Source: an uncultured Gemmatimonadales bacterium
Lineage (GTDB): Bacteria; Gemmatimonadota; Gemmatimonadetes; Gemmatimonadales; Gemmatimonadaceae
Assembly (NCBI GenBank): GCA_963851265.1
Contig: CAWKNZ010000002.1
Coordinates: forward strand, 224,001 to 288,000
Direction: 5' to 3'
DNA: 64,000 nucleotides
Of this stretch, positions 3,402 to 59,733 are shown piece by piece. Below the pieces are notes generated by a model. That model saw only the letters and a program-made list of their open reading frames with translations, was not told the DNA's origin and searched no databases. Position 1 is the first letter of the stretch. Every line of letters begins with the position of its first letter. Position numbers and translations under genes: made by a program.

Positions 3402-5422
3402 GCGACCCCGATCCGCCGCGCGCCGTGACGTTTCCGCCCGATCCCGGGCTCGATTTCGACCTGCTGCTGGCCTATTTGCGGGCGACCCGCAGTTTCGAGT
3501 TCAGCGGCTACAAACGTGTGGGACTCGCGCGCCGGATCGGCAAGCGGATGCGGGCCACCGGCTCCGCGACGTACGCCGCGTACCAGGAGTACCTCGACGC
3601 GCATCCGTCCGAGTTCGCCGAACTGTTCGACACGATCCTCATCAACGTGACCGCCTTCTTCCGCGACGAGTCGCTCTGGGAGCACCTCCGCGCCGAGGTC
3701 GTGCCGCAGCTGCTCGCGGCGCGCGGCGGGTCCGACCCGATTCGCGTGTGGTGCGCCGGATGCGCGACGGGGCAGGAGGCATACACGCTCGCCATCGTGC
3801 TCGCCGAGGCGATGGGCGACGACAAGTTCCGCGAGCGCGTGAAGCTCTACGCGACCGACCTCGACGAGGACGCGCTCGCCACGGCGCGGCAGGGCGTCTA
3901 CCAGGAGCGGGACGTCGCCGCGCTGCCGCCCGACCTCGTCGAGCGCTACTTCGAGCGTGACGGGCAGCGCTACGTCTTCCGCAAGGACCTGCGGCGCCTG
4001 CTGATTTTCGGGCGGAACGACCTCATGCAGGACGCGCCGATCTCGCGCATCGACCTGCTGACGTGTCGCAACACGCTGATGTACTTCGACGCGCCCACGC
4101 AGGCGCGCGTGCTGGCGCGCTTCCAGTTCGCGCTCAACGACGGCGGCGTCCTCGTGCTCGGGCGCGCCGAGACGCTGCTCACCCACACCAACCTGTTCGT
4201 CCCCGTCGACCTCAAGCGACGCGTGTTCGTCAAGGTGCCGCGCTACAACGCGGTGTCCGGGGCGTCCGGCGTGGTCGCCAGCCCATTCCGGTGGCGCGAC
4301 CGGTCCTCGGGCGCGACATACGGTCCCGGCGAGGGGCCCGACCGTGGGCTCGACGGCGAACTGCGCGACGCGGCGTTCGACGCGGGGCCGATCGCGCAGC
4401 TCGCGATTGACCGCACCGGGCGCCTCCTCGCCATAAACGAGCGCGCCCGCGCCCTCTTCCAGCTGGGCCAGCCCGACCTCGGTCGCCCGCTGCAGGACCT
4501 CGAAGTCTCGTACCGCCCGTTCGAGCTGCGTTCGCTCATCGACCAGGCGTTGAGCGAGGGGCGCCCCATCGTGAACGGCGAGGTGCCGTGGCGTGCGCCC
4601 GGCGGCGAGATGCGCTGGTTCGACATCCGCGTCGTGCCGCTCATCGCGCCCGCCGAATTCGGCGCCACCCCAGCGCCGGCCGGCGCGGGGGTGAGTGCGA
4701 CGTTCATCGAGGTCACGCGCTACAAGCAGCTGCAGCATCAGGTGCAGGAGGCGCAGGCGGAGCTGGAGGCCGCGTACCAGGAGCTGCAGAGCACGAACGA
4801 GGAGCTCGAGACCACGAACGAGGAGCTGCACTCGACCGTCGAGGAGTTGGAGACGACGAACGAGGAGCTGCAGAGCACGAACGAGGAGCTCGAGACGATG
4901 AACGAGGAGCTCCAGAGCACGAACGAGGAGCTGCAGACCATCAACGACGAGTTGCGCCAGCGGAGCGAGGACCTCAACCGGGCCAACGCGTTCCTCGAGT
5001 CGGTGTTCGCGAGCATGCGCGCGGGGGTGGCCGTGATCGACCGCGACCTGCGCGTGCTGTCGTGGAGCAACCTCGCCGAAGATCAGTGGGGCGTGCGGGC
5101 CGGCGAGGTGGTCGGCACGAGCTTCTTCAACCTCGACATCGGCCTGCCGGTCGAGCGGCTGGCCGAGGCGATCCGCGCGTGCCTGGCCGGCACCGCCGAC
5201 GCGCAGGAGCTGGTCCTCGGCGCGACCAACCGGCGCGGCCGCGCCACGCAGTGTCGCGTCAGCGTCCGGGCGCTCGCCGACCCGGGCGAGAAGCGCCCGC
5301 GCGGCGCGCTGATCCTCATGGAAGAGCTGCCTAACGAAGTGGGGGCGGGCGCCGCACCGCGGGGGGAGCCGGCCGCCGCGGCCCCGGCGGGCGCGGACGG
5401 GGCCGCGGCCCCCGAGGGCTGA
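3398..5422 (+). CDS. cheR: CheR-type methyltransferase fused to PAS - coiled coil - PAS
   Basis: INVTAFFRD, RVWCAGCATGQEAYT, YATDLD, CRNTLMYFD; (ELQSTNE)n coil; two PAS-like segments; TTGA overlap with cheB. Confidence 0.93.
   Translation: MSDPDPPRAVTFPPDPGLDFDLLLAYLRATRSFEFSGYKRVGLARRIGKRMRATGSATYAAYQEYLDAHPSEFAELFDTILINVTAFFRDESLWEHLRAEVVPQLLAARGGSDPIRVWCAGCATGQEAYTLAIVLAEAMGDDKFRERVKLYATDLDEDALATARQGVYQERDVAALPPDLVERYFERDGQRYVFRKDLRRLLIFGRNDLMQDAPISRIDLLTCRNTLMYFDAPTQARVLARFQFALNDGGVLVLGRAETLLTHTNLFVPVDLKRRVFVKVPRYNAVSGASGVVASPFRWRDRSSGATYGPGEGPDRGLDGELRDAAFDAGPIAQLAIDRTGRLLAINERARALFQLGQPDLGRPLQDLEVSYRPFELRSLIDQALSEGRPIVNGEVPWRAPGGEMRWFDIRVVPLIAPAEFGATPAPAGAGVSATFIEVTRYKQLQHQVQEAQAELEAAYQELQSTNEELETTNEELHSTVEELETTNEELQSTNEELETMNEELQSTNEELQTINDELRQRSEDLNRANAFLESVFASMRAGVAVIDRDLRVLSWSNLAEDQWGVRAGEVVGTSFFNLDIGLPVERLAEAIRACLAGTADAQELVLGATNRRGRATQCRVSVRALADPGEKRPRGALILMEELPNEVGAGAAPRGEPAAAAPAGADGAAAPEG
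4781..4950 (+). repeat. 21-bp heptad repeat encoding ELQSTNE/ELETTNE
   Basis: Repeated GAGCT(G/C)(C/G)AGA(G/C)(C/G)ACGAACGAG units. Confidence 0.9.
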
Positions 5423-5490
5423 CGCCTAACGGTACGCGTCGTGAGGGCGCCCGACGTCAGGCCGTCCCCGCGGTCGGCCGGTCCCCGCGG

Positions 5491-5922
5491 TCAGGCCGTC
5501 GCGTAGTACGCGTCGATTCCCCAGCGCACGGCGTCGCTCATCACGACGCGGGAGTCGGCCGCGTCGGCCGCGGTCGGGGCCGCGGCGCCGCGCACGGCGT
5601 CCTTCACGACCACGAGCATGCGCTCCGGCGGGACGCCGCCGCGGCGGAGGTGGGCGGCGAGGACGCTCACGGCGTCGCACAACTGCGTGCGGGACGCGTC
5701 GAACTCCGCGAACGTCGCGTCCGCCACGTCGAGCGCGGGGTGCACGCGCGCGGACGTGTGCCAGCGGCCGGCCGCGACGACCGCGCGCGCCGCCGTATCG
5801 CGCACGCGGCCGGTCAGGGCTCCGAGCACGTCGCCCGGAGCGGCGCCGCCGGCTGCCGCGAGGATGTCGGCCGCCGCGGCGTCGCGCGCGACCGACGGCG
5901 GAACCTGCGAGACGTCGCTCAT
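5491..5922 (-). CDS. Hypothetical helical protein (LRRGGVPPERMLVVVK...VRWGIDAYY)
   Basis: Typical codon usage and a protein-like C-terminal motif; no family recognised. Confidence 0.7.
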   Translation of the reverse strand: MSDVSQVPPSVARDAAAADILAAAGGAAPGDVLGALTGRVRDTAARAVVAAGRWHTSARVHPALDVADATFAEFDASRTQLCDAVSVLAAHLRRGGVPPERMLVVVKDAVRGAAAPTAADAADSRVVMSDAVRWGIDAYYATA

Positions 5923-16200: not shown

Positions 16201-16652
16201 TGAAGAAGAACGCGATCATGATGGTCGACTTCGCGGTCGAGGCCGAGCGCACGCGAAACCTCGACCCCAAGGAGTCGATCTTCGAAGCGTGTCTGGTGCG
16301 CTTCCGCCCGATCACGATGACGACGCTCGCCGCGCTCGTCGGCACGCTGCCCATCGCGCTCGGCCTCGGCGCCGGCGCGAAGAGCCGCCAGCCGTTAGGC
16401 ATCGCGGTCGTCGGCGGCCTTCTCTTCTCGCAGGTCGTCACCCTCTACGTCACGCCGGTGCTCTACACCTACTTCGACGGGCTGCAGCAGCGCTTCGCAC
16501 ACCGCAAGGCCAAGGGCACGGTCGCCCGGCCGGGCACGGAACGCGCGGACGACGACGAGCAGGGCGGGCGTGGGACGCCGACGCCGGCCCCGGCGCCGCG
16601 TCCGCAGGCTCCCAAGCAGCCGCTCCCCGCGGCGGCGGCGGTGCGCGCATGA
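13233..16652 (+). CDS. RND efflux permease (MdtB/MdtC-like, HAE1)
   Basis: FIKRPV, LPVSDLPNVDYPT, GFVVDDAIVVLENI, GLVKKNAIM, RFRPITMTT; extra Pro/Ala/His-rich linker between the two halves. Confidence 0.96.
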   Translation: MNFVAPFIKRPVMTTLFLLSLLVAGFFAWQSLPVSDLPNVDYPTVTVNASLPGASPETMAASVATVLEKQFSTIAGIDNMTSSSTLGSTSITLQFSLDRDVDAAAQDVQAAISATLRTLPQGIIPPSYQKVNPANSPILYVALTSTTNPLADVDEIAETNLAQQISTINGVAQVQVYGAQKRAVRVQMDPRKLAQLQLGTSDVATAVASQSPNLPSGTLWGTSRAYVVQANGQLQQATEFSNLVVTYRNGAPVRLGDLATVVEGVQNDKTAAWFGSPELNQPMRRSITLAIQRQPGTNTVEVADNVKAILPKLTANIPAGISMNIMYDRSQTIRESVRDVELTLLLTLVLVVGVVFLFLRSPRATAIPSLALPLSVAGTFAIMKVLGYSLDNLSLMALTLAVGFVVDDAIVVLENIVRHREMGKTAMQASFDGAQEVAFTVLSMTLSLSAVFLPLLFMSGIIGRLFREFSVTIAVSILVSGVVSLTITPMLASRFLRDAPPDAAGAEGVRTTDPKTGEQAGNLAAPQLASQQHAPQPEPTATLAHASNPHASAEHKDSLHDEAPRLLRPILDLFERGYEAVHRLYETTLRWTMFHRPVVLLGSVGVLVGTYFLFKAVPTSFIPSDDTSFLVTSTLAAQGTSFEDMVRHQQQAAELVQKDPNVAAFSSSVGNGGGGSNQGRITIRLKSPANRALDADAVARELTQKLNRIPGLQSFVQNPPTIQIGGRQSAALYQFTLQGTNLSTLYSVSNQLQLQLQKSPLLSDVTSDLFLSNPTAALVIDRDRAGALGVSAQAIEQTLYDAYGSRQVGTIYTPTNQYWVVLELQPGAQRDPSALGLLYVKSSRGTSVPLSSVTTVQDTVSPLSVNHSGQVPSVTISFNLPAGVALGTATQFVQRQADALIPASSSIITSFGGTAQAFQSSQAGLLGLLVLAILVIYLILGVLYESFIHPITILSGLPFAVFGALLALWIFNQELSVYAFIGLVLLIGLVKKNAIMMVDFAVEAERTRNLDPKESIFEACLVRFRPITMTTLAALVGTLPIALGLGAGAKSRQPLGIAVVGGLLFSQVVTLYVTPVLYTYFDGLQQRFAHRKAKGTVARPGTERADDDEQGGRGTPTPAPAPRPQAPKQPLPAAAAVRA

Positions 16653-17404
16653 GCGGCTACCCGCCCATCCCGCAGCAGGTCACCCCGACGCCGGTCGTCC
16701 CCGGCGTCTGGGACCTGCCGCTCGGCATCGTCCACGCGTACCTCGTCGCCGACGGCGAGGCGCCGGACGCGCCACTCGCGCTCGTCGACACGGGCCTCCC
16801 CGGCAGCGCACCGGCCATCCTCGGCGCGGTCGCGGCCCTCGGGCGGCGTCCCGCGGACGTGCGCTGGATCGTCGCGACGCACCTGCACGTGGACCACACG
16901 GGCACCCTGGCCGAGCTGAAGCGGGCGAGCGGCGCGGAGGTGCTGATGCACCCGACCGACGCGGCGATGGTGGCCGAGGGCGCCGCGGGGCGCACGATGC
17001 ACGAATCGCCGGCGCCCGGGTCGGCGGCGTTCGTCGCGGGGTTCGACCCGCGCACGCGGCGCGTGGAGCCGTGCGCGACCGACCGCCTCCTCGCCGACGG
17101 CGACGAGTTGCCCTTCGCCGGGGGCGCGCGCGTGGTGCACGCGCCGGGGCACGCCGCCGGGCAGGTGGTGCTGCTGCTGCCGGGCCACGGCGGCGTGCTC
17201 GTCGCCGCCGACGCGTTAGGCAATCCCGGCGGCCGGCTCGGCTGGAGCGTCGGCTACGAGGACCTCGCGCTCGGTGCCGACACGGTCGAGCGTCTCGCGG
17301 GGCTCACGTTCGAGCACGCGGTGTTCGGCCACGGCGACCCGATCGTCGGCGGGGCGGACGCGCGGTTCCGACGGGCGGTGGACGAGGTGTTCCGGGCCGC
17401 GTAG
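16649..17404 (+). CDS. Metallo-beta-lactamase-fold hydrolase
   Basis: LVDTG, THLHVDHTG, APGHAAG, ADA, FGHG; ATGA overlap with the RND gene. Confidence 0.9.
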   Translation: MSGYPPIPQQVTPTPVVPGVWDLPLGIVHAYLVADGEAPDAPLALVDTGLPGSAPAILGAVAALGRRPADVRWIVATHLHVDHTGTLAELKRASGAEVLMHPTDAAMVAEGAAGRTMHESPAPGSAAFVAGFDPRTRRVEPCATDRLLADGDELPFAGGARVVHAPGHAAGQVVLLLPGHGGVLVAADALGNPGGRLGWSVGYEDLALGADTVERLAGLTFEHAVFGHGDPIVGGADARFRRAVDEVFRAA

Positions 17405-17548: not shown

Positions 17549-18022
17549 ATGCCCGTCCTCACGTTAGGCCGCCGCGCGCTCGGGGCCGCGGCCGCCCTGT
17601 CCACCGCGGCCGCGGCGCTGCCCGGCGCCGCCGCGACCGCCCACGCCCAGCCGCGCGGCGCGCAGCTGCTCTACGAGTGGCAGGGGCGCGTCGACCACGA
17701 GGTGCAGATCTTTCCGGGGCGCGGCGGCTTCGACGTGCGCGGCATCGGCGGCGCCGAGAACCCGGGCCGATTCCGAAACACCGGCGGCCCGCCGCGCGGG
17801 TCGGGGCAGATCAGCGTCCAGCGCCTCAGCGGCCGCGGCCCCGTCGACGTGCTCGGCAGCAACGTCGTGCGCATCCGCGACCCGCAAGGCGGGGCGGACT
17901 TCTACCGCATCCGCGTGTACTGGCAGCCCAGCGGCGGGCAGTACGGGCGCGGCGACGGCGACGGCCGGAACGACCGCGGCCGCGACGACCGCCGCGGGCG
18001 CGACGACCGCCGGCCGTTCTGA
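17549..18022 (+). CDS. Secreted hypothetical protein
   Basis: Signal peptide ending ATAHA|Q; WQGRVD...GRGPVDV...VVRIRDPQGGADFY; R/D-rich tail. Confidence 0.75.
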   Translation: MPVLTLGRRALGAAAALSTAAAALPGAAATAHAQPRGAQLLYEWQGRVDHEVQIFPGRGGFDVRGIGGAENPGRFRNTGGPPRGSGQISVQRLSGRGPVDVLGSNVVRIRDPQGGADFYRIRVYWQPSGGQYGRGDGDGRNDRGRDDRRGRDDRRPF

Positions 18023-18122: not shown

Positions 18123-19484
18123 CTACGCCATCTCGTCCTGCGGCGGCGGCCCCCGGAACGCGTCCTTGCCGGCCGTCGGCGCGAACGTGACCGGCCGCCC
18201 CGTGCGCGCCGCCTCGTAGATCGCCGCCTGGATGCGGTGATCCTGGACGCCCTCCTCGCCGGGCGTGTACGGCTGACGGTTCTCCCGCACGCACTGCGAG
18301 AAGTGGTCGGCCTCGCGCGCGAACTGGCTCTTCTGCGCCATCGGCAGCTCGGCGATCCGCTCCTGCCCGTTCTCCGCGCGCGCCGCGCGCATCCGCAGCC
18401 CCTCGTAGCTGAACGCCGGGTCGAGCTCGACCCAGCCGTCTTCGCCGGTCACGCGGTAGCGCCGCGACTGGTGCGTGCCGTAGCTCGACCCGCAGTTGGC
18501 GAGCGTCCCCGACGGGAAGCGCATCGACCAGAGCACCGTCTCCTCGACCTCGCGGAAGCGCGGGTCGTCCTTGGGGTCCAGCAGCTGCGCGCGGATCTCG
18601 ACGGGCTCCTCGCCGGTGAGGAAGCGGGCGGTGTTGAAGCAGTAGATCCCCACGTCCGGCAGCGAGCCGCCGCCCGAGAGCGCCAGCCGCTGGCGCCACT
18701 GCGTCGGGTCGCCCTGCGCCTGGCCGTTGAACATCTCGACCACGGTGACCTTGCCTAACGGACCGCGCCCCGGGCCCGAATCGCGCACCATCTTCATCGC
18801 CGCGCGGTTGTGCGGCTCGTACTGGATGCGGTAGGCGACCATCAACTTGCGCCCCGCCGCCGCGCACGCGCGCACCATCCGCTCCGCGTCGGCGACGTTG
18901 GTCGCCATCGGCTTCTCGCACAGCACGTGCTTCCCGGCGCCCGCCGCGCGCACCACCTGCTCGGCGTGCAGCGCGTTGGGCGTGGCGACGTACACGGCCT
19001 CGACCGCGCGGTCGTCGCGCAGGCGGTCCCACTCGTTGTAGCCGTACACCCGCCGCGGGTCGAGCCCGAACTGCTGCGCGATCGCCCGCCCCTTGTTGGG
19101 GTCGCCCGTCATCACCGCGACGAGCTTCGAGCGCTTGCTCTGCTGCATCCCCGGAATCATCTCGGTGAGCGCGATGCGCCCGAGCCCGATGACGCAGTAG
19201 CCGACCCGCATCTCGGGCGGCTCCGGGTTGGGCGGCTGGCCCTCCTGGCGCTCCGTCGACTTCTCGGTGGGCGGAAAGTGCACCGCGGGCGGCTGCGCGC
19301 CCGGGCCGGTGCCGCTCCCCGGCGTGGTCTGCCCGCGGTCGACCGGCGCCTGCGCGCGCGCGACGTCGCCGTCCAGCAACGAGACCACCCCACCGGCGAG
19401 CGACAGGGCGCCGAGCCCGGCGCCCGCGCGGGCGAGGAAATCGCGGCGGGTCGGGCCCGCCTGGTCGAGCGCATTCTTCGTCAT
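18123..19484 (-). CDS. Tat-exported Gfo/Idh/MocA oxidoreductase (glucose-fructose oxidoreductase-like)
   Basis: TRRDFL twin-arginine signal; IGLGRI, VYVATPNALH, HVLCEKPMA, AYRIQY, GGGSLPDVGIY. Confidence 0.92.
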   Translation of the reverse strand: MTKNALDQAGPTRRDFLARAGAGLGALSLAGGVVSLLDGDVARAQAPVDRGQTTPGSGTGPGAQPPAVHFPPTEKSTERQEGQPPNPEPPEMRVGYCVIGLGRIALTEMIPGMQQSKRSKLVAVMTGDPNKGRAIAQQFGLDPRRVYGYNEWDRLRDDRAVEAVYVATPNALHAEQVVRAAGAGKHVLCEKPMATNVADAERMVRACAAAGRKLMVAYRIQYEPHNRAAMKMVRDSGPGRGPLGKVTVVEMFNGQAQGDPTQWRQRLALSGGGSLPDVGIYCFNTARFLTGEEPVEIRAQLLDPKDDPRFREVEETVLWSMRFPSGTLANCGSSYGTHQSRRYRVTGEDGWVELDPAFSYEGLRMRAARAENGQERIAELPMAQKSQFAREADHFSQCVRENRQPYTPGEEGVQDHRIQAAIYEAARTGRPVTFAPTAGKDAFRGPPPQDEMA

Positions 19485-20849: not shown

Positions 20850-20855
20850 CGCGGC

Positions 20856-28583: not shown

Positions 28584-29003
28584 GATCGATGACGGAGGGG
28601 ACGCGTGCGGCCGTCGCGCGGGACGTGCTCGCGGGCCGGACCTACGGGAGATAACGGGAGATGCAACGAAGGGGAGGGCGGGGCGCTACGCGCGACCATC
28701 CCGGTCGTCGCGCCCGCGTCGTCCGCCCCGCACGTCCCGCCGCGACTCGTTAGGCACTCGGCGGGCGTCGGGAGAGGCGGCCCGGTCCGCGTCCGCGGCG
28801 CCCGCACGCGCGATCGTGCGGCGCCGTCGCGTTCCCCGACTGTGCAACACCGAATCTGCCAGCGTCCAGCCCCGCCGGCCCGGCCCTGGGGTGTCTTCCG
28901 GTCCCGCGCGTTTCTCCAGAATGAAGACACGAGCCCGGTCGCGCGGGTCGCAGCTCCCAGACAACTCGGCACGAGTCCGTCGCGCCTCCACTACCTTCCG
29001 ACC

Positions 29004-39254: not shown

Positions 39255-39905
39255 ATGACCCGAATCCTTGCCCGTTCGCTCGGCGCGCTCGCGCTCGTGC
39301 CTACCCTTGCCGCCGCGCGCCCGACCCGCCCCACCGGTGCTCCGCCGAGTGCGCCCCTGCGTGCCGCCGCACTCGACACCGCGGTGTTCGCGGGTGGATG
39401 CTTCTGGGGCGTCGAGGGCGTGTTCGAGCACGTGCGCGGGGTGCGTTCCGCGACGGCCGGCTACGCCGGCGGGACGGTCCCGTCGCCGTCGTACGATCAG
39501 GTGAGTACGGGTTCCACGGGGCACGCCGAGTCGGTGCGCGTCGTCTACGACCCGTCGCGCGTGTCGTACGACCAGTTGCTGCAGGTGTTCTTCACCGTCG
39601 CGCACGACCCGACCGAGCTCAATCGGCAGGGGCCGGACGTCGGGACGCAGTACCGCTCGGCCGTGTTCTACCGCACGCCGGCGCAAAAGGCCGCGGTCGA
39701 GGCGTACGTCGCGCGCCTGCGCGCGTCGCACGCGTTCGCGCAGCCCATCGTGACCCAGATCGCGCCGCTCGCGCGCTTCAACGAGGCCGAGGCGTACCAC
39801 CAGCGGTACATGGCGCAGCACCCCGACGCGCCGTACATCATGTACAACGACGCGCCGAAGGTGGCGGAGCTCAAGAAGCGGTTCGCCCCACTGTACCAGG
39901 GTTAG
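39255..39905 (+). CDS. msrA: Peptide-methionine (S)-S-oxide reductase with a signal peptide
   Basis: FAGGCFWG, GYAGG, GHAESV, HDPT, QGPDVGTQYRS, AEAYHQ. Confidence 0.95.
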   Translation: MTRILARSLGALALVPTLAAARPTRPTGAPPSAPLRAAALDTAVFAGGCFWGVEGVFEHVRGVRSATAGYAGGTVPSPSYDQVSTGSTGHAESVRVVYDPSRVSYDQLLQVFFTVAHDPTELNRQGPDVGTQYRSAVFYRTPAQKAAVEAYVARLRASHAFAQPIVTQIAPLARFNEAEAYHQRYMAQHPDAPYIMYNDAPKVAELKKRFAPLYQG

Positions 39906-39938
39906 GCCGGGCGCGCGCGGGTCGGCCGGGGGGTCGGG

Positions 39939-43142: not shown

Positions 43143-44651
43143 CTACAACGCAGGCGCGCCGGCGACGCGCTGCACGAGCGCGTACAGGAAGTCGAGCCCC
43201 TCGTAGAAGCTCTTGACGCGCAACTTCTCGTCGCGGCCGTGCGCGTTGCTCTCGCCGGGCGCGCTGAAGAGCCCGCTCACCCCGTACGTCGGCACGCCCA
43301 CGGCGCGCAGGAAGCGCCCGTCGGTGGCGCCGGTGCTCATGGTCGGGATGACGGGGATGTCGCCCCACGTGCGGTGCGTCAGGTCGGTGACGGCCGCCAT
43401 GAGCCCGGGGTCGATCGCGCTCGGCGGCGCGCCGAACTTGTCGGTGGGCGGGATGGTGTAGGTCACGCGCACCCCCGTGTCGGCGACCATCCGCGCGAGC
43501 CCGGCGCGCACCTCTTCGGCGTTGGACGTGGGCACGATGCGACAGTTCACGTTGGCCGTGGCCGACTGCGGCAGCGCGTTGTACGCGTGCCCCCCTCCGA
43601 GCCGCGTGGCGACGCACGTGGTGCGGAGCACCGAGTGGTAGCGCGGGTCGCGCGAGAGGGTGGCCGCGGCGGCCGCGACCGCCGCCGAGTCGGCGCCGTC
43701 GGCGACCAGCGCGCGCATGGCGGCGGCCATGTCGGGGCGCGGCTCGACCGCCGCGGTGCTGGCGAAGTAGGCGCGCGTCACCGGGTTGAGGGCGACCGGG
43801 AAGTCGCTCCGGGCGAGATGGCCTAACGCGTCGGCGAGCTCGTAGATGGCGTTGTCGGGGCGCGGCACGCTCGAGTGGCCGCCGGGGTTGGTGGCGGTGA
43901 GGGTGTAATTCACCGGGACCTTCTCCGCCGCCTGTACGGCGTGCATCAGCGGCCGCGCGCCCGCGACCCCGCCCGCCTCGGTGAGCGTCCCGCCGCCGCC
44001 CTCGTTGAGGGCGTAGGCGGCGTCGAGCAGGTCGCGGTGCGTGCGCGTGAGCCACTCGACGCCGTTCGCGTCGCCCCCTTCCTCGTCGGCCGTGAGCGCG
44101 AGGATCAGGTCGCGCGACGGCGTCCACCCCTCGCGCTTGTAGCGCAGCAGGTTGGCCGTGAAGATCGCGGCCATCGCCTTGTCGTCCGCCGTGCCGCGAC
44201 CGAGGAAGTAGCCGCCCTCCTCGTGCAGCGTGAACGGGTCGCGCGGCCAGTCGGCGCGGTTCGCGGCGACGACGTCGAGGTGCGCGAGGAGCAGGATCGG
44301 TTTCGCGGCGGCGCCCCCCGCGGGCGGCCGGCCGCGGTAGCGGACGATGAGGTTGGCCTTGGTCGGCTTCCCCGGCGGGGTGAGGATCTGGACGTCGGCG
44401 GCGGGAAAACCGGCGGCGCGGAAGCGGGCGGCCATCGCGTCCACGGCGCGCGTGACCGACCCGACGGAATCGACCGTGTTGATCTCGACCAGTTCGCGGT
44501 AGATCGCGCGGGCGGCCTGCTGGTCGGGCGTACGCTGCGCGGCGGCGGTCCGGGCGGTCAGGGCCGTGGCGGCGGCGAGCGAGGCCGCGACAGCCGAGCG
44601 CGCGGCACGGCGGGCGGGGCGGGATGCGGAGTCGTGCGGTGGGCGGCGCAT
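43143..44651 (-). CDS. Secreted M20/M25/M40 metallo-hydrolase
   Basis: LLAHLDVV, GRGTADDK, ADEEGG, NEGG, GGHSS, GATDG, HGRDE. Confidence 0.92.
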   Translation of the reverse strand: MRRPPHDSASRPARRAARSAVAASLAAATALTARTAAAQRTPDQQAARAIYRELVEINTVDSVGSVTRAVDAMAARFRAAGFPAADVQILTPPGKPTKANLIVRYRGRPPAGGAAAKPILLLAHLDVVAANRADWPRDPFTLHEEGGYFLGRGTADDKAMAAIFTANLLRYKREGWTPSRDLILALTADEEGGDANGVEWLTRTHRDLLDAAYALNEGGGGTLTEAGGVAGARPLMHAVQAAEKVPVNYTLTATNPGGHSSVPRPDNAIYELADALGHLARSDFPVALNPVTRAYFASTAAVEPRPDMAAAMRALVADGADSAAVAAAAATLSRDPRYHSVLRTTCVATRLGGGHAYNALPQSATANVNCRIVPTSNAEEVRAGLARMVADTGVRVTYTIPPTDKFGAPPSAIDPGLMAAVTDLTHRTWGDIPVIPTMSTGATDGRFLRAVGVPTYGVSGLFSAPGESNAHGRDEKLRVKSFYEGLDFLYALVQRVAGAPAL

Positions 44652-49976: not shown

Positions 49977-49983
49977 GCCGCGC

Positions 49984-50553
49984 CTAACGCCGCGCCGCGC
50001 GGCGGGCCGGTCCGGGGCGCGCCGGCGCCCGGCGCTCGTCGGCCGCGAGGCGCTTCACGAACAGGAACTTCTTCCCGATCGACAGCTCCGAGCGCGAGAT
50101 CGCCGCGTAGCGCGCGATCTTCTCCGGGTAGCGCGCGAGGCTCGACTGGCGGAAACCCGCGGCCGTGAACAGGGTGTCGGCGAGCGAGACGGCGAACAGC
50201 TCGGGGTAGCCGCGCTGCCGCGCGAGCGCCTCGGCGGCCGCGATCAGGCGCCGCCCGAGTCCGCGCCCCTGCGCCTCGGGCGCGACGGCGAGCGAGACGA
50301 GTTCGGCGAGCGACGGCGCGTACTCGTCGATCGCGACGCAGCCTAACAGCGGGGCGTCGTGGCCCGCCGGGGCGCCGTCCGCGCCGCGAGGGGCGTCGCC
50401 TCGCGCCACGCGGTAGCCCTCGATGCGCGCCGCGACGAAGGCCGGCGTGCGCGGCAGCGTGAGCCCGTCGGGCGCGTAGCGGTTGTTGAGCGCGGCGATC
50501 GCTTCGGCGTCCTCCGGGCGCGCGGGGACGATGGCCGGGGCGGCGTCCGTCAC
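49984..50553 (-). CDS. GNAT N-acyltransferase (short, ArgA-like)
   Basis: LAELVSLAVAPEAQGRGLGRRLI; GTGA overlap with the upstream peptidase. Confidence 0.88.
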   Translation of the reverse strand: MTDAAPAIVPARPEDAEAIAALNNRYAPDGLTLPRTPAFVAARIEGYRVARGDAPRGADGAPAGHDAPLLGCVAIDEYAPSLAELVSLAVAPEAQGRGLGRRLIAAAEALARQRGYPELFAVSLADTLFTAAGFRQSSLARYPEKIARYAAISRSELSIGKKFLFVKRLAADERRAPARPGPARRAARR

Positions 50554-52238
50554 CGCCCGGCCCCCATGGCCCCGTGCGGTGCCGGGAGCGGCGCGCGCGG
50601 CAGCAGCGCGGGCAGGTTGGCCGCGCCGTAGAGCACCGTCGCGGTCACGACGGCGGCCTGGCGCAGGTCGTCGGGGGCGAGGTTGGCCGCGACGTCCGCG
50701 CTGGTGTGGTGCGTGCGCGTCTCGTAGTCGAGCGGGTCCTGCAGGAAGGTGAATGCGGGAACGCCCACGCTCGCGAACGGCATGTGGTCGGTGCTGCCCG
50801 TGTTGGCGATGGTCAGCGTCGTGGGACCCAGGTCGGCGACGGGCGCGAGCAGCTGCCGGAAGACGGGCCGCGCCGCCGCGTTCCCCTGCAGCCACACGCC
50901 GCGGATGCGCCCGGTGCCGTTGTCGAAGTTGAGGTACGTGCTGAGGCGCGCCTGCTCCGGCTTGAGTCGCATCGTCTCGGGGTCGCCGAGGTGCGCGCGC
51001 ACCCAGCCTAACGAGCCGAAGTAGTCCTCGTGCTCCTCGCCGTCCCAGAGCGCGACGCGGACGGTGCGGCGCGGGTGCGCGCCGGCGGCCGTCAGCAGGC
51101 GCAGGGCTTCGATCGCCACCGCCGCGCCGGCCGCGTTGTCGGTGGCGCCGGTGCCAGCGGTCCACGAGTCGAAGTGCCCGCCGACCATCACGACCTCGGC
51201 CTCGAGCGCGGGGTCGCTCCCGGGCAACTCGGCGATCACGTCGGAGCCGGTCGAATCGGCGCGCGTACGCGGCGCGTCGAGGCGCGCGCGGACGTCCAGC
51301 GTGACCTCGGGCGCGGGGCGCCCCGCGCGCGCGGCCAGGCGCACGAGGTTGGCGAGCCGCCCGTAGTCGTCGCGCGAGACGACCATCGCCGGGGGCGCGG
51401 CGCGCAGGTCGGTGTCGTACGCCTGGTACGCGCCGACCATGGGCACGAGCGGGTTGCGGCTCGGCGCGAGCACGGCCACCGCGCCGGCCCGCGCGAGCGC
51501 GAGGTACACGCCCTGTCGCCGCGCCACGTTCGCCGGGTAGTCGCCCGCGTCCTCCCAGTAGTCGCGCGGCGAGCCCGGCGCGGTGAGCCGGGCGAGCGAG
51601 TCGAGCTGCGCGTCGGTCCACCGCGTCGTGAGCGGCTCGGCGTGCTCGTCGCGGAGCGACAGTCCGGGCACCTCGCCGAGCATCACGATGCGCCCGCGCA
51701 CGCGTGCGGCCAGGCGGCCACTGTCGGCGCGGGCGACGTCGCCCGCCGAGTCGAGGCGCTCGGTGACGAGCACCGGCGTGCCACGCACCGCGGCCCCGTT
51801 GCCCGCGGGTCCGGTGGCCGGGCTCCACGCGAACGGGTACGCGACGAGGCGCGCGTAGTACGGCGCGTTCAGCTCGAGCGAGTAGCTCTCGAGGGTCCAG
51901 CGGTTGCCGCGCCGCGTACCCCACGGCTCGAGGTGCGCGGTGAGCCCGTAGCCCGCGAGCGTGCGCCGCGCCCACTCGGCCGCCTCGCCCCACGCGCGTG
52001 ACCCCGCCAGTCGCGGGCCGAAGACGTCGGAGAGGATGGTCGCCGTCTCGGCCACGCGCGAGTGGGTCATCCCCTCCTCGCGGACGCGGGCGAGCACCGC
52101 CGCGTCGGCGGCCGAGTCGGGCGCGCGCGCGGGTTGCGCGTGCACCGACGCGCCAGCGACCGGCGTGCCGGCGAGCAACGCGCCGAGGAGGACGGCCAGG
52201 CGGCGGGTGGGCGTGGAAGTCGACGGACGGCGTGGCAT
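50550..52238 (-). CDS. Secreted M28 peptidase (carboxypeptidase Q-like)
   Basis: Signal peptide; GPRLAGS, GGHFDSW, GATDN, WDGEE, STDH, THHT. Confidence 0.92.
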   Translation of the reverse strand: MPRRPSTSTPTRRLAVLLGALLAGTPVAGASVHAQPARAPDSAADAAVLARVREEGMTHSRVAETATILSDVFGPRLAGSRAWGEAAEWARRTLAGYGLTAHLEPWGTRRGNRWTLESYSLELNAPYYARLVAYPFAWSPATGPAGNGAAVRGTPVLVTERLDSAGDVARADSGRLAARVRGRIVMLGEVPGLSLRDEHAEPLTTRWTDAQLDSLARLTAPGSPRDYWEDAGDYPANVARRQGVYLALARAGAVAVLAPSRNPLVPMVGAYQAYDTDLRAAPPAMVVSRDDYGRLANLVRLAARAGRPAPEVTLDVRARLDAPRTRADSTGSDVIAELPGSDPALEAEVVMVGGHFDSWTAGTGATDNAAGAAVAIEALRLLTAAGAHPRRTVRVALWDGEEHEDYFGSLGWVRAHLGDPETMRLKPEQARLSTYLNFDNGTGRIRGVWLQGNAAARPVFRQLLAPVADLGPTTLTIANTGSTDHMPFASVGVPAFTFLQDPLDYETRTHHTSADVAANLAPDDLRQAAVVTATVLYGAANLPALLPRAPLPAPHGAMGAGR

Positions 52239-53766: not shown

Positions 53767-55799
53767 TCGGGGCCGGCCGGCGTCTCGGCCAGCGTGGCGA
53801 GCGCCTCGGCGCCCGCGCCCTCCGGGCCGCGGAGCCACACGCGCCGGAGCGCCTGCTGCCGTTCGGTGGGCGCGTCGACGTCGGTGAGGCGCACGCGCAA
53901 CACTTCGTAGCCCGTGATCGGCACCACGACGTGCACCGGCGTGGGGTCGGCGGCGCCGGGCGCGGGGCGCAGCACGTCGACCGCGACCGAGTCATCGATC
54001 TTGGCACCCGCGATGGCGCGCGTGAACGCGGCCGCGTCGTTGACCGGCGCGTCGTTCACCGAGACGACGAGGTCGCCGCCGCGGAGCCCGGCCTGGTACC
54101 AGGCGCCCGTGAGCAGCGGCGCGGCCAGCCGCGGGCGCGTGCCCGCCGCGCCCCCCGCGCTGCCGATGCCGCCGAAGGGCAGCACGCTCACGCGCAGGTC
54201 CGGCCGCGGGCGGCCGAGCGAGTCGGCGGCCGCCTCGCGCACGGTGTCGAGTTGCCACCCGGCCGTCGCGAGCCGCGGCGCCCAGTTGATCGGCTGCGCG
54301 GCGTGCACGTACGCGGCGAAGAAGGGCGTCATGTTGCAGCCGCAGACGGCGCTCGCGGTCGCCTCGAGGTCGGCGGGGACGAAGCCGGCGGGGCCGGAGA
54401 AGCGGTCGTAGAGCGAACGCATCATGTCGTCGACGCCGCGCCGCCCCGCGCTCGCCGAGCGCAGGCGCAGCTCGAGCAGCTCGCCTAACAGCCTGCCCTG
54501 CAGGTAGTACGTGATGCTGTAGCCGCCGTTGACCGACGCCTGGTCCCAGGCCGTGAGGCTGGACCGCTCCGGGCTGACGCGCGCGCCCGCCGGGTTGTTG
54601 AGGTAGTCGCCGACCGCACTCTCGAAGTCGCGCACGGCGGCGGCGGAGTCGCGCAGGCCCGAGCGGCGCAGGAGTTCGGCGGCCATGTAATCGGTCACGC
54701 CCTCGCTCCACCAGAGGGAGGGCGTGCGCGTGGTGCGCACGTAGTCGAACGGTCCGAGCTCGCGGGGGCGCAGGCGCTTGACGTTCCAGAGGTGGAAGTA
54801 CTCGTGCGCGGTCACCGCCGCGGCCGCGGCCGGGTCGCGGGCGAGGCGCGCCGCGGGGATGCCGATGGTGGTCGAGTTGAGGTGTTCGAGCCCGCCGCCC
54901 GCGCCGTCGACGTAGAGGAACGCGTACTCGCGGTAGGGCAGCTCGCCCATCACGCGGCGCGCGGCGCGGACGGCCACGGCGGTCGTGTGGGTGAAGCGGC
55001 TCGTGTCGAACGACGGCGCGGCGGACGAGCGCCAGTAGGCGACGCGGTGGGGGGCGCCGTCGACGTCGAAGCGCGCGACGCGGAGCGACGACGGGGGCCC
55101 GGCGAGGATCGGGCTGTCGAGCAGCACGTCGAGGCTCGGCGCGAAGAAGTTGCGCGGCTCGGACGTGGGGACGAGCCCGGTGACCACCTGCCAGCCCGCG
55201 GGCGCGTCGACGTGGACGCGCGCGGGGAGGCGCTCGGAGCCGGTGATGAAGGCCCAGGTGAGCGGCCCGTCGACGAGCGCGCCGTCGCGGCGGAGAAAGC
55301 TGCGGTCGTTAGGCGTGGCCGCCGCGGCGGCGGACGGGAACGTGACGTGGTACGAGATGCGGAGCGCGCTCGTGTCCTCGGGGAGGCGCCGGGCCGAGTC
55401 GGGGGTGACGTCGTCGGGCAGCGGCGGGGCGGTGACGATGCGCCACGTGCTGTCCGGCTGCTTGGACGGCCCGATGGTGCGGCCGCCGCGCGAGGCGGTG
55501 ACGTTCTCGGCGTACTGGCCGAACTCGGCGATGCGGTAGGCGCCGGGCGCCCACCGCGCGAAGCCGAGGCGCACGGCGGGGAGGGGCGGGCGGCGGATGA
55601 CGAGCGTGACGTCCCACCCCGTGAGGTCGGTGGTGTCGAGGCGGACGGTGTAGTCGAGCTGCGGGTCGGTGCGCGCGCGGCGGACCTCGAACGCGTCGGA
55701 GTAGGCGCGGGGGGCGACCTGGGCGCGGGCGGCCGGGGCGACGACGGCCGCGCAGACGGCGAGCGCGGCCCGAGCGAAGCGGCGGGAGCGGTTCGGCAT
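53613..55799 (-). CDS. M61 glycyl aminopeptidase with a PDZ domain
   Basis: Signal peptide; WAPGAY, LLDSP, GGLEHLNS, HEYFHLWNVKR, LWWSEG.T.Y, AGLRGGDLVVSVND. Confidence 0.93.
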   Translation of the reverse strand: MPNRSRRFARAALAVCAAVVAPAARAQVAPRAYSDAFEVRRARTDPQLDYTVRLDTTDLTGWDVTLVIRRPPLPAVRLGFARWAPGAYRIAEFGQYAENVTASRGGRTIGPSKQPDSTWRIVTAPPLPDDVTPDSARRLPEDTSALRISYHVTFPSAAAAATPNDRSFLRRDGALVDGPLTWAFITGSERLPARVHVDAPAGWQVVTGLVPTSEPRNFFAPSLDVLLDSPILAGPPSSLRVARFDVDGAPHRVAYWRSSAAPSFDTSRFTHTTAVAVRAARRVMGELPYREYAFLYVDGAGGGLEHLNSTTIGIPAARLARDPAAAAAVTAHEYFHLWNVKRLRPRELGPFDYVRTTRTPSLWWSEGVTDYMAAELLRRSGLRDSAAAVRDFESAVGDYLNNPAGARVSPERSSLTAWDQASVNGGYSITYYLQGRLLGELLELRLRSASAGRRGVDDMMRSLYDRFSGPAGFVPADLEATASAVCGCNMTPFFAAYVHAAQPINWAPRLATAGWQLDTVREAAADSLGRPRPDLRVSVLPFGGIGSAGGAAGTRPRLAAPLLTGAWYQAGLRGGDLVVSVNDAPVNDAAAFTRAIAGAKIDDSVAVDVLRPAPGAADPTPVHVVVPITGYEVLRVRLTDVDAPTERQQALRRVWLRGPEGAGAEALATLAETPAGPDQPTTASIPTVRAPSSRRATLTRSPSASTRADSSKRASGAGRSARARATPR

Positions 55800-55868
55800 C
55801 CGGGCCAATCTACGGACGCGACGTCCCGACCGCCCGCCGCGTCCGCGGCGTGGCCGTACGTTAGGCGC

Positions 55869-56090: not shown

Positions 56091-57122
56091 TCACGACCAC
56101 TCGTGCGGGCGCTTCCACAGCTGGCGGCCGAGCTGCCAGGAGCGCTTCGACACCTCGCCCCCTTCGGCCCAGAGGTCGGCGTCGTCGAGCGCGTCGAGGA
56201 AGTCGGTGGCCTTGGCGCTCGCGTCGTCGGCGTGGTGGACGATCTGGGCCTCGACGGTCATGGGCACGACGGGCGAGCCGTACTCCAGCTTGCCGTGGTG
56301 CGAGAGGATCATGTGCCGCAGCTCGAGCAGCTGGCCCTCGCTGCACGGCATCTCGCCTAACGCCTGGAGGCAGCGCTCGAGGTGGAGGACGCCGAGCACG
56401 ACGTGGCCGACGAGCAGGCCGCACGGCGTCGCGGAGAAGCCGGCCGGCGACACCTCGTACGCCTCGACCTTGCCGATGTCGTGCAGCAGCGCGCCGGCGA
56501 CGACGAGGTCCTCGTTCACCCGGCGCACGGCCTTGGCCGACATCTTCGCGATGTTCGCCACCTCGACCGTGTGCTGCAGCAGGCCACCGATCTTCGCGTG
56601 GTGCCCCTTGGTCGACCCCGGCGCGCGCTCGAACTGGACGCGGAAGGCGTCGTCGCCGAACACGGCGTGCAGCACGGCGCCGAGCGCCTCGGACTGCACC
56701 GCGCCGCGCGCCCGGTCGAGGCGGTCCCAGAGCTTCTCGACGTCCTCGTCGACGTGCGGAAGGAAGTCGGCGGGGGAGAACTGCGAGTCGGGGAGCACGC
56801 GCAGCGGCGCGGTCACGGTCAGCTGCCGCTTGGCCGCGCCGTTGAAGGCGGCGAGCTTCACGTCCCCGATCACCTGCACCACGCGCCCCTGGTCGGCGCC
56901 GTCCACCCAGTCGAGGCGCTCGAACCAGAACGGCGCGCACTCGATCACGCCCGAGCGGTTGCCGAGGACGAGCACGACGTACGGTTTGCCGTCTTTCGTG
57001 ACTTTTTCGGCGCGCTCGCGCACGAGCAGCTCGTGCTGCACGCGGGCCCCCGGCGCGAGCCCGGGCAGGTGGAGCGGCGCGGGGCCGCCGGACGAGGGAC
57101 CGCCGGTCGCGGTGGCGCTCAT
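56091..57122 (-). CDS. OB-fold plus HD nuclease (YhaM/Cbf1-like 3'-5' exoribonuclease)
   Basis: TKDGKPY, HHAKIGGLLQHT, GALLHDIGK, LVGH, SHHGKLEYGSP, HHAD. Confidence 0.9.
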   Translation of the reverse strand: MSATATGGPSSGGPAPLHLPGLAPGARVQHELLVRERAEKVTKDGKPYVVLVLGNRSGVIECAPFWFERLDWVDGADQGRVVQVIGDVKLAAFNGAAKRQLTVTAPLRVLPDSQFSPADFLPHVDEDVEKLWDRLDRARGAVQSEALGAVLHAVFGDDAFRVQFERAPGSTKGHHAKIGGLLQHTVEVANIAKMSAKAVRRVNEDLVVAGALLHDIGKVEAYEVSPAGFSATPCGLLVGHVVLGVLHLERCLQALGEMPCSEGQLLELRHMILSHHGKLEYGSPVVPMTVEAQIVHHADDASAKATDFLDALDDADLWAEGGEVSKRSWQLGRQLWKRPHEWS

Positions 57123-58078: not shown

Positions 58079-58816
58079 GTGGAGTCCATCCGTCCTCTCG
58101 CGCGCCTGTCGGCCGACGTGCGCGCCATGATTGCCCCGTACGGCGCCAAGGCCACCTGGCCCGCCGGCTTCACCATCTACCAGCGCGGCGCCGCCGCCGA
58201 CGGGCTGTTCGTCGTGCTCACCGGGCGCGTCGTGCTGCGCAGCCGGGTCAAGGCGGGCCGGGGCTTCGTGCCCGCGGTCGCCGTGGCCGGCGAGACGTTC
58301 GGCGCGGAGGGGCTCGTGCCGCGCGGCGCCTACGCGACCGACGCCCGCGCCGAGGAGCCGAGCGAGACGCTGCACGTGCGCGGCCCGCAGTTGCGCACGT
58401 TCCTGCGCGAGCAGCCGCTCTACGGCCAGGCGTTGCTCGGCCAGGTGATGGCGGAGCGCACCGAGCTGCTCGACAAGTTGCGCGAGGTCGCGACGCTGTC
58501 GGTCGAGGACCGGCTGATCGCGGCGATGCTGCGCCTCGCGGCGCAGCGCCCGCGCGGGACGCCGGCGGGCGAGGCGCTCGTCCTCGGTCCCAACGAGTAC
58601 CGCCTGCTGTGCGAGCTGGTCGGGGCGACGCGCGAGAGCGTGTCGCTCGTCTTCAACCGGTTCGCGGCGAGCGGCCTCGTCGACCGCGACGGCGCGACCT
58701 ACACCGTCGCCGACGTCGGCGCCCTGGCCGAGCGGCTGGGGTCGACGTGGGCGGAGAACGACGCCCCGCTGGTCGTCGAGCGCGAGCCGGGCGTCGGGCG
58801 GGCGGTACGCGCCTAA
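58079..58816 (+). CDS. Crp/Fnr-family transcriptional regulator
   Basis: AGGAG RBS; cNMP domain (GETFGAE), SVEDRL, LVGATRESVS HTH. Confidence 0.9.
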   Translation: MESIRPLARLSADVRAMIAPYGAKATWPAGFTIYQRGAAADGLFVVLTGRVVLRSRVKAGRGFVPAVAVAGETFGAEGLVPRGAYATDARAEEPSETLHVRGPQLRTFLREQPLYGQALLGQVMAERTELLDKLREVATLSVEDRLIAAMLRLAAQRPRGTPAGEALVLGPNEYRLLCELVGATRESVSLVFNRFAASGLVDRDGATYTVADVGALAERLGSTWAENDAPLVVEREPGVGRAVRA

Positions 58817-58833
58817 CCGCGGCGCCCGCCCGC

Positions 58834-59733
58834 TCAGCCTAACGAATCGCCGGTGGGGCGGCACGCGAGGGTCTGCGTGCCGCCCCACCGCGCGCCCGGG
58901 GCCACCGCGACCGGCTCGGCCGCCGCGGCCTCGACGCACACGTAGCGCTGCCAGCCCCCGGGCTCGAGGTCGGCGAGGGCCGCCGCGCGCGCGGCACCCG
59001 GGTTCCACACGACGACGTCGCGGAACCCCGTCTGCGCGACGCGGGTCGCGCGGCGGAGGGCCGCGTCGTCGAGCGTGACCGGGCCGGGGACGTGGAAGTA
59101 GAGGTGGTCCACCTCGCCCGCGAGCCCGAGCGGCGCGCCCCGCGGCGCGAGCGGCGCCCCGCCCGCGGCCGTGTCGCGCCCGCCGACCGCCTCGAGCCCG
59201 CGGACCCGCGCCGCGCCGGCGTCTCCCACGCGCAGGTACGTGTGCAGCGCGCCGGTGAACGCGAACGGCGCGTCGCCCGGGTTCTCGACGGCGAGCGTGA
59301 GGGCGAGCGCGTCGCCGGCCACGCGAACGGTCAGCTCCAGACGGAACGCGTGCGGCCAGCGCGCCCGCGTCTCGGCGTCGAGGTCCGCGTCGGTGAGGGC
59401 GAGCACGGCTTCGGCCGCGCCGTCCGCGGTGCCGCCGACCATGCCGCTGCGGACCACGCGCCAGGGGCGGGTGCGCGCGAAGCCGTGGCGGATGGACGGG
59501 CCCGGGCCGGCGACGATGTCGCTGAACTGCGGAAAGATCACCGGCACCCCGCCGCGCACCGCGGCGCCCGCGCGGTACTCGGAGCGCTCGCTCACGAACA
59601 GGCGTTCGGCGGCGCCGCCCGGCGCGTCGGGCGCGGGCGTCCACGACACGACGTGGGCGCCGTAGGGCAGCACGGCGGCGCGTGCGCCGTCGGCGGCGGC
59701 GAGGACGAGGGGTGTGAACGGCGTGTCGGACAT
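58834..59733 (-). CDS. D-hexose-6-phosphate mutarotase (aldose epimerase family)
   Basis: GAHVVSW, RGGVPVIFPQF, HGFAR, ALHTY, VVWNP, YVCVE. Confidence 0.93.
   Translation of the reverse strand: MSDTPFTPLVLAAADGARAAVLPYGAHVVSWTPAPDAPGGAAERLFVSERSEYRAGAAVRGGVPVIFPQFSDIVAGPGPSIRHGFARTRPWRVVRSGMVGGTADGAAEAVLALTDADLDAETRARWPHAFRLELTVRVAGDALALTLAVENPGDAPFAFTGALHTYLRVGDAGAARVRGLEAVGGRDTAAGGAPLAPRGAPLGLAGEVDHLYFHVPGPVTLDDAALRRATRVAQTGFRDVVVWNPGAARAAALADLEPGGWQRYVCVEAAAAEPVAVAPGARWGGTQTLACRPTGDSLG

Follow-up and report, generated by a model that had tools for sequence, protein, structure and literature searches.

We know of genome-wide self tags of the uptake type from only two proteobacterial families. 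Among other words that recur along bacterial chromosomes, highly iterated palindrome 1 (HIP1; GCGATCGC) of cyanobacteria is a palindrome linked to resident methyltransferases, and Chi, the FtsK-orienting polar sequences (KOPS) and the architecture-imparting sequences (AIMS) are polar to replication and need RecBCD or AddAB or FtsK. Known uptake sequences are described, in one published study, as non-palindromic, of point-mutation origin and significantly evenly spaced, with 35-65% of copies in genes, an excess in spacers and an 82-92-fold fall from 0 to 1 mismatch (PMC1939737); another gives dialects as the rule in their families (PMC3630211). The word treated here, CGTTAGGC, with the heptamer GTTAGGC (GCCTAAC on the other strand) as its core, came to light in 64,000 nucleotides of an uncultured Gemmatimonadales bacterium of the family Gemmatimonadaceae (GenBank GCA_963851265.1, contig CAWKNZ010000002.1, positions 224,001 to 288,000). 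This whole stretch, called the window, is C2:224001-288000 of the source assembly (G000; 4.60 Mb in 12 contigs, 73% guanine plus cytosine (GC), completeness 94%). The word is a DNA-level, orientation-free signal, written against codon habits. It may, as a tentative assignment, be a genome-wide self word working like the DNA uptake sequence (DUS) or uptake signal sequence (USS) of Neisseriaceae and Pasteurellaceae, of which it is not a proven member.

A DNA-level signal

The heptamer occurs 1762 times in G000, 885 times on the + strand and 877 times on the - strand, where Markov models predict 396 (order 0), 160 (order 1), 96 (order 2) and 126 (order 3) copies, so that the excess for orders 1 to 3 is 11-18-fold. 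Among 7-mers with at least 200 copies it heads the observed-to-expected ranking for orders 1 and 2 and comes second for order 3, bearing out the abundance claimed by the initial annotation. A maximal-order Markov ranking does not flag it, because the signal is carried by the word's own sub-words, and orders 0-3 and codon shuffles were used instead. Of the 2470 TTAG words of the genome, 1762 lie in the heptamer. The base 5' of it (n=1762) is C in 79% of copies and T in 14%, and the base 3' is G in 54%; given the preceding C, the true word is the 8-mer CGTTAGGC, with 1396 copies in G000 against 50-82 expected.

Gene-based numbers rest on a crude self-trained gene caller (3684 genes, 87.7% coverage) and not on a curated annotation. 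Genic copies amount to 1290, against 73.6 +/- 9.3 in 30 synonymous-codon shuffles (maximum 96), or about 17 times the null. The ratios of observed to null copies in the four open frames are 998/44 (Leu-Gly), 198/18.8 (Pro-Asn, antisense), 70/9.9 and 24/0.8, and the word also overlaps 124 of 432 TAA stops (29%) and 83 of 733 TAG stops. It holds 998 of the 1287 TTA codons in called genes (78%). With this excess over shuffled codons, and with TTA concentrated genome-wide in G-TTA-GGC, the earlier claim of a DNA-level signal, neither coding nor compositional, stands on both points at which it could have failed; enrichment extends to all four stop-free frames, covering both strands, to stop codons and to spacers.

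Synonymous opportunities are filled in 13.7% of cases for antisense Pro-Asn (198/1449) and in 9.2% for sense Leu-Gly (998/10805). Occupancy further depends on the preceding residue, being 14-22% after Ala, Thr, Ser and Pro (NCG codons), 5-8% after Leu, Val and Met (NTG) and 0.4% after Gly; the preceding base is selected at the nucleotide level, via the last bases of the preceding codon. Copies per kb are higher outside genes than inside, and spacer copies have no preferred orientation. Enrichment of this one word recurs in genera of 62-64% GC and of 73% GC. In genus g52 (64% GC) all four frames are used, with 63 sense against 53 antisense copies. Seeming runs of + copies in that genus proved to be an artefact of listing order, the contigs showing both orientations: 28 + and 28 - on one 96-kb contig (G150:C1), and 50 + and 33 - on another.

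Copies in the window

Within the window the heptamer is present 27 times, 7 times as + (GTTAGGC read on the forward strand) and 20 times as - (GCCTAAC), in exact agreement with the count and coordinates first reported; 100 dinucleotide-preserving shuffles of the window gave a mean of 2.25 copies (standard deviation 1.49, maximum 6). The contexts assigned by the initial annotation reappeared when our own, crude gene calls were used: xxG-TTA-GGC (Leu-Gly) in 16 copies, antisense xxG-CCT-AAC (Pro-Asn) in 3, overlap with a stop codon in 4 (3 TAG, 1 TAA) and non-coding sequence in 4. Likewise, most TTAG/CTAA words sit in the heptamer (27/35), and the near variants GTTAGAC (19525, 31305) and GTTAGTC (27004, 60886) are where they had been placed. 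A C precedes the heptamer in 19 of these 27 copies. The genes that host them are ordinary, among them an RND pump, peptidases, GGDEF/EAL proteins and transferases. By position, strand and context the copies are:

5329..5335, -: CGTTAGGC, antisense xxG-CCT-AAC (Pro-Asn), CheR-PAS gene 3425-5422(+)
5424..5430, -: CGTTAGGC, non-coding, 2 bases past the stop of gene 3425-5422
16394..16400, +: CGTTAGGC, xxG-TTA-GGC (Leu-Gly), AcrB-type RND pump gene 13233-16652(+)
17215..17221, +: CGTTAGGC, Leu-Gly, metallo-beta-lactamase-fold gene 16649-17404(+)
17563..17569, +: CGTTAGGC, Leu-Gly, gene 17549-18022(+)
18753..18759, -: CGTTAGGC, Leu-Gly, GFO/IDH/MocA oxidoreductase gene 18123-19616(-)
20854..20860, -: CGTTAGGC, with the TAG stop (GT-TAG-GC) of FAD-oxidase gene 20856-22307(-)
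21213..21219, -: CGTTAGGC, Leu-Gly, FAD-oxidase gene 20856-22307(-)
24013..24019, -: CGTTAGGC, Leu-Gly, hexapeptide-transferase (cysE-like) gene 23773-24684(-)
25952..25958, -: CGTTAGGC, Leu-Gly, GGDEF-EAL gene 24743-26581(-)
27456..27462, -: TGTTAGGC, Leu-Gly, M28 peptidase gene 27006-28583(-)
28749..28755, +: CGTTAGGC, non-coding
30478..30484, -: TGTTAGGC, antisense (Pro-Asn), gene 29894-30958(+)
33623..33629, -: GGTTAGGC, non-coding, immediately upstream of gene 33090-33620(-)
34536..34542, -: TGTTAGGC, Leu-Gly, gene 34269-35930(-)
35340..35346, -: CGTTAGGC, Leu-Gly, gene 34269-35930(-)
39901..39907, +: GGTTAGGC, with the TAG stop of msrA-type gene 39384-39905(+)
43821..43827, -: CGTTAGGC, Leu-Gly, M20 peptidase gene 43143-44651(-)
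49982..49988, -: CGTTAGGC, with the TAG stop of GNAT gene 49984-50553(-)
50341..50347, -: TGTTAGGC, Leu-Gly, GNAT gene 49984-50553(-)
51006..51012, -: CGTTAGGC, Leu-Gly, M28 peptidase gene 50550-52145(-)
54483..54489, -: TGTTAGGC, Leu-Gly, M61 peptidase gene 53613-55799(-)
55308..55314, +: CGTTAGGC, antisense (Pro-Asn), M61 peptidase gene 53613-55799(-)
55860..55866, +: CGTTAGGC, non-coding
56355..56361, -: CGTTAGGC, Leu-Gly, HD-domain gene 56091-57122(-)
58811..58817, -: GGTTAGGC, with the TAA stop (GCC-TAA-C) of Crp-type gene 58079-58816(+)
58837..58843, -: CGTTAGGC, last two sense codons (Leu-Gly) of aldose-epimerase gene 58834-59733(-)

The CheR-PAS fusion (3425-5422 +) that carries the first copy lies between two CheB methylesterase genes (2241-3401 + and 6032-7117 -), and the group, at 2241-7117, is an ordinary chemotaxis-type module.

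Specificity and spacing

The enrichment is sharply confined to the word. Apart from GTTCGGC and the synonymous TTG neighbour GTTGGGC, words one mismatch away reach 0.1-0.7 of the count predicted by the order-1 model. GTTAGGC is 50-140 times commoner than in low-copy relatives of equal GC, at 49-142 copies per 100 kb against 1-2.5, and its one-mismatch neighbours are at the level of the low-copy genomes, except for the last-base variants (T, A or G; mainly T) and GTTATGC. Tolerated changes are thus confined to the last base and to G to T at the fifth base, with the preference C>T>>A,G at position -1. None of the one-mismatch neighbours is rarer than in low-copy genomes of equal GC, and therefore no repair "sink" is visible. 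The specificity looks like a protein recognition profile and not like a mutational or repair sink.

The copies also avoid one another. Pairs no more than 200 bp apart number 46 in G000, against 129 under a Poisson distribution. For coding copies, with sites drawn from the real synonymous opportunities as the null, there are 10 such pairs against 69 +/- 7.5 (lowest of 200 simulations 50), and 79 against 160 +/- 10 within 500 bp. The repulsion reaches about 500 bp whatever the orientation: within 300 bp, pairs in the same orientation are 17 against 75.9 and pairs in opposite orientation 8 against 25.7. Since copies of either orientation repel equally, orientation is irrelevant to function, and one copy of either orientation seems to meet a local need. 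Inverted pairs are few (6 within 30 bp). Spacing is even in another high-copy genome, G012, as well, with 17 copies no more than 100 bp apart against 50.

One large region departs from this regularity. The longest word-free stretch of G000, 45 kb at C1:182876-227962, has none of the 13.9 coding copies expected, and holds gidA/mnmG, parA, parB and mnmE together with ordinary genes. Two congeners share it: G004 has 2 copies in the 35.2 kb aligned to this desert against 26 in 43.3 kb outside, and for G001 the aligned DNA (36.4 kb) contains 1 copy, with a further 2 at the edge, compared with 13 in 37.6 kb beyond it.

Turnover and phyletic distribution

The window region has syntenic counterparts in three congeners, at 77-85% DNA identity. 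In these, 13 of 39, 26 of 43 and 23 of 42 of the G000 positions (33-60%) also carry the word. Control 7-mers are mostly shared at 20-40% (6-46% across all control comparisons). Where the word is absent, the congener mostly reads GCTCGGC, GCTGGGC or GTTGGGC, from which it follows that copies are gained and lost by synonymous point change. Identity to congeners over the 200 bp on either side is 84.2% for occupied [A/T/S/P]-Leu-Gly sites (67 site-relative pairs) and 79.8% for unoccupied equivalent sites (344 pairs; p=3e-6, a test that overstates the difference because sites were counted once per relative), and occupancy climbs from 5.4% to 12.9% across quintiles of codon typicality. The word sits preferentially in DNA that is better conserved and more "native".

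For one window protein, the best named relatives come from metagenome-assembled genomes of Gemmatimonadaceae, at 49-52% identity. Over 201 genomes of this family the 8-mer count ranges from fewer than 30 to about 3900 per strand. In 71 tabulated genomes the ratio of word to reversed-word control is bimodal, 28 lying above the control and 43 below. About 40% of the genera carry the word and the others are at baseline, while high- and low-copy genomes coexist within genera g53, g23 and g44; in g53, G114 has 37/29 copies and four congeners have some 1600-2000 per strand. In a phylum sample of 151 genomes, enrichment outside Gemmatimonadaceae is confined to genus g103 of family f2. The tallies include the unpublished genomes G011, G047, G093, G254 and G281, all low-copy, and no claim depends on any single one. 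Genera g1, g9 and g52 share the same word, and only the last base is relaxed, in G012. As a separate observation, the k-mer ranking of G001:C5:270001-410000 is dominated by a repeat of about 52 copies containing ATTGAAAC, probably a CRISPR array.

A possible role in DNA uptake

The properties above are, in large part, those of the DUS and USS: a short non-palindromic word, in both orientations and hundreds to thousands of copies, found in genes and spacers but denser outside genes, with a sharp one-mismatch drop, even spacing, an origin by point mutation in existing sequence and a lineage-specific distribution. Since it matches these listed features while lacking a known receptor or dialects, the word is filed as uptake-sequence-like and not as a proven member. 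It differs in its phylum and in its letters, in that no receptor of the ComP_DUS type was found and no dialects were seen, in that the trait occurs in only about 40% of one family's genera, and in its word-free origin-proximal stretch in one genus and its few inverted pairs.

To the observed DNA-level nature, specificity profile, spacing, turnover and phyletic pattern, uptake as a process and the existence of a receptor are added by analogy. A sequence-specific protein would read CGTTAGGC on double-stranded DNA in either orientation, and an ongoing lineage-specific drive would hold the word abundant: the competence apparatus would preferentially import fragments bearing it, homologous recombination would then swap out alleles without it, and point mutations making the word, mostly synonymous, would thereby be fixed. 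Accumulation would stop at about 1 copy per 0.7-2.6 kb, where a nearby second copy adds nothing.

G000 has comEC, dprA (over cut-off), pilT, a comEA-like gene directly upstream of pilB-pilT-pilC, and a PilQ-like secretin at 250 bits, below the 284-bit cut-off. No ComEC match was found in any of the 11 sampled genomes of g25, g48 and g67, all of them low-copy; 12 of the 15 genomes without a ComEC match are low-copy, and the remaining 3, which are high-copy, have fragmented assemblies (460-910 contigs). The word behaves as an on/off trait, as expected if a single specificity factor were gained or lost.

Several observations weigh against a role in uptake. The competence genes are family-wide (ComEC in 186/201 genomes, PilT in 71/71, a comEA neighbour of pilBTC in 63/71) and occur in high- and low-copy genomes alike, so that nothing links the machinery to the word. 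For ComP_DUS (PF16732), 1 of 71 genomes passes the cut-off and belongs to the low-copy group, and G000 gives no match; minor pilins of the GspH/FimT type, in 24 of 71, are unrelated to the trait. When candidate reader or partner genes were set against the high/low pattern, none discriminated, whether integron integrase, ComEC, RecC, AddAB-type nuclease, PilT, comEA neighbour, ComP_DUS, the Type IIG-like methyltransferase described below or GspH/FimT. No dialects appeared among the high-copy genera sampled, nor any abundant own word in the low-copy genomes G006 and G015, and literature searches gave no paper tying Gemmatimonad* to uptake sequences, or Gemmatimonas to natural transformation. The desert in three species of one genus is not predicted by an uptake model and is more simply accounted for by a chromosome-bound protein. 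Finally, the raised conservation near copies may merely reflect accumulation in conserved genes.

A possible chromosomal-protein site

Of the possibilities listed by the initial annotation, an uptake-type signal and a site for a chromosomal protein remain, and the latter, somewhat unlikely as it is, is the main rival. On this explanation CGTTAGGC would be the binding site of a putative nucleoid-associated or chromosome-organising protein, with selection holding about 1 site per 0.7-2.6 kb and excluding sites that interfere. The protein-like, orientation-free specificity, the even spacing with repulsion below about 500 bp and the 45-kb word-free stretch kept in congeners all fit such a protein. 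Against it, no such desert lies at parB in two other high-copy genera (G052, G189), no candidate protein was found, and half of the family's genera do without the word. Fast positional turnover is odd for individually selected sites, and thousands of weakly selected sites that run against codon bias need very strong selection or drive. An origin-proximal desert as a general rule was rejected, as it is found in genus g1 only. Despite the presence of parAB, neither the canonical parS TGTTTCACGTGAAACA (up to 2 mismatches) nor clusters of DnaA boxes were found in the G000 assembly, nor was a repeated 12-mer usable as a local parS.

Methylation and repair

As has been proposed for HIP1, the word might accumulate through a modifying or restriction-like enzyme, here one whose site is not a palindrome, but this is unlikely. 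The candidate is a conserved Type IIG-like N6-adenine methyltransferase, intact in G000 (1141 aa, C7:582086-585511), with Pfam matches to Eco57I and MmeI_Mtase and PADLOC matches to REase_MTase_IIG (134 bits) and DrmMI (89 bits); at the same locus (C7:579717-585511) it adjoins an SNF2 helicase that matches DrmD. Enzymes of this class read asymmetric words of 6-8 bp and methylate one adenine, and in CGTTAG the A is next to last, as in the sites of MmeI and of bacteriophage exclusion (BREX) systems; a specificity change in the target-recognition part would then switch the trait on or off. Orthologues of the enzyme, however, are present in 69 of 71 genomes, high- and low-copy alike, with an identity unrelated to copy number, and restriction sites are normally avoided, not enriched. 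Its conservation at 69/71 in Gemmatimonadaceae is, in itself, unusual for a gene of the restriction-modification type.

Other methylases are few. G000, at 94% completeness, has no match to a C5 methylase (PF00145), to Vsr (PF03852), to N6_N4_Mtase (PF01555) or to a Dam-type enzyme (PF02086), and its two Type-I-like N6_Mtase loci are split across several frames. These loci, C7:771474-772495 and C9:923-1858, are both at contig ends and may be broken genes or assembly errors in a repeat. The combination of 5-methylcytosine with very-short-patch repair by Vsr was rejected, there being no PF00145 or PF03852 match in G000 and no depleted deamination neighbour. A mutational or repair bias would not give short-range repulsion, and the undepleted neighbour words speak against it too. 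Methylation-driven accumulation, one of the initial suggestions, thus finds little support in the methylase searches or in the neighbour words. The word resembles HIP1 as a hyper-abundant, lineage-specific octamer used in all frames; it differs in being asymmetric, in the lack of C5, Dam-type and N4/N6 (PF01555) methylase matches in G000, and in that the sole intact IIG-like enzyme of G000 is also in low-copy genomes.

A possible integron connection

A further possibility, very unlikely on present evidence, is that the word is the R''/R' end of the family's attC sites and that the integrase or a cassette-end factor also reads the chromosomal copies. The attC consensus RYYYAAC / GTTRRRY accommodates both GCCTAAC and GTTAGGC, and the former is R'' of attC(aadB), according to a published account (PMC12901181). 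G000 has seven attC-like elements that fold as hairpins, four on C10 and the others at C6:1592-1708, C9:56165-56285 and C6:34252-34324. The R' end is CGTTAGGC in six of the seven and TGTTAGGC in C6:34252-34324, so that the match with the genome-wide consensus includes the preceding C and, in 5 of the 6, the following G; five of the hairpins (the four on C10 and C6:1592-1708) start with GCCTAAC and finish with CGTTAGGCG. Cassette arrays with the same ends are found in low-copy relatives also.

Yet pairs of the form GCCTAAC...(50-150 bp)...GTTAGGC number only 9 among the 1762 copies, with 3 in the control orientation, and the copies were made by in-frame synonymous substitution, not by insertion. 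The integrase (TIGR02249) exceeds its cut-off in 18 of 31 relatives irrespective of copy number; it is split in G000 (C6:3005-6044, with matches at C6:5244-6044 and C6:3005-3166), degraded in G001 and G012, and intact in many low-copy genomes. Chromosomal copies thus share with attC ends identical letters, in G000's own elements up to CGTTAGGCG, but they are solitary, lie inside conserved genes, arise by substitution, lack a hairpin partner and do not track the integrase.

The attC-like hairpins are 97-121 bp long, most of them ending in CGCCTAACG...CGTTAGGCG, and lie near many small same-strand open reading frames in a cassette-array-like arrangement (C6:1-6044, C10:186000-206000). In the low-copy genomes G303, G248, G247 and G264 of family f2 the 8-mer has few copies with a strong strand bias (e.g. 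6/62, 71/20), recurring every 0.5-1 kb on one strand, which is the signature of integron cassette arrays with one attC arm matching.

Polar signals and codon effects

The word is highly unlikely to be a polar signal of the Chi or KOPS type, read by RecBCD/AddAB or FtsK, such as the translocase or recombination site first considered. The density of 1 per 0.7-2.6 kb is within the Chi range, G000 has an AddAB-type pair, and the polarised part of C2 is slightly richer in copies on the strand that carries most genes (Leu-Gly 9.4% against 6.8%, Pro-Asn 14.5% against 9.0%), an excess of only 1.4-1.6-fold after controlling for opportunity. But the skew on C2 tracks gene strand (r=0.74) and not GC skew (r=0.09), in a test of polarity that is indirect as origin and terminus were not located, and copies repel equally in either orientation. 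Matches to RecC came from 6 of 71 genomes, and 20 of 71 had AddAB-type PDDEXK_1 pairs; the high-copy genomes G001, G012, G052, G060 and G061 gave neither. With no polarity beyond gene strand, and with the nucleases not found in most carriers, this explanation is largely refuted: the word is like Chi, KOPS and AIMS as an over-represented 7-8-mer across the chromosome at similar density, and unlike them as non-polar beyond a gene-strand effect and as borne mostly by genomes in which RecC and AddAB were not found. On its own account, C2 shows extreme gene-strand polarity at about 800-1830 kb: gene counts per 50 kb reach 46:0 and 47:1 in favour of +, and the polarity flips to - at about 1350 kb, with GC skew near zero throughout. 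The flip may mark a replication terminus or origin.

A codon- or RNA-level effect (rare TTA as a regulatory or pausing codon), or a by-product of composition, has an almost negligible chance of being right: sense G-TTA-GGC does make up 16 of the 27 copies in the window and 998 of the 1290 in genes, but both versions are refuted by antisense Pro-Asn sites filled as often or more per opportunity, by copies in stop codons and spacers, by the dependence on a preceding NCG codon, by the use of all four frames at 62-64% GC, and by same-GC relatives with 1-2.5 copies per 100 kb.

Implications

Full-text literature searches gave no description of CGTTAGGC as a genomic motif, in keeping with the initial suggestion that it is possibly undescribed for the lineage. 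The word is relevant to annotation and binning because it separates native from foreign DNA. About 200 genomes with the trait on or off, even within a genus, make for an unusually good setting in which comparative genomics could identify the reader. Should it turn out not to be an uptake tag, the word marks a sequence-specific system that overrides codon bias at a thousand Leu-Gly sites. An uptake look-alike in a genetically hard soil phylum would point to natural transformation there and would offer a genetic handle, in that the word could be placed on transforming DNA. The boldest form of this proposal, distinctly unlikely as it stands, is a third, independently evolved uptake-sequence system, the first outside Proteobacteria, whose word is an integron cassette end. 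Were it true, the on/off pattern would mark the gain and loss of a putative receptor, and competent cells would preferentially import conspecific DNA and integron cassettes too, thereby joining natural transformation to cassette capture.

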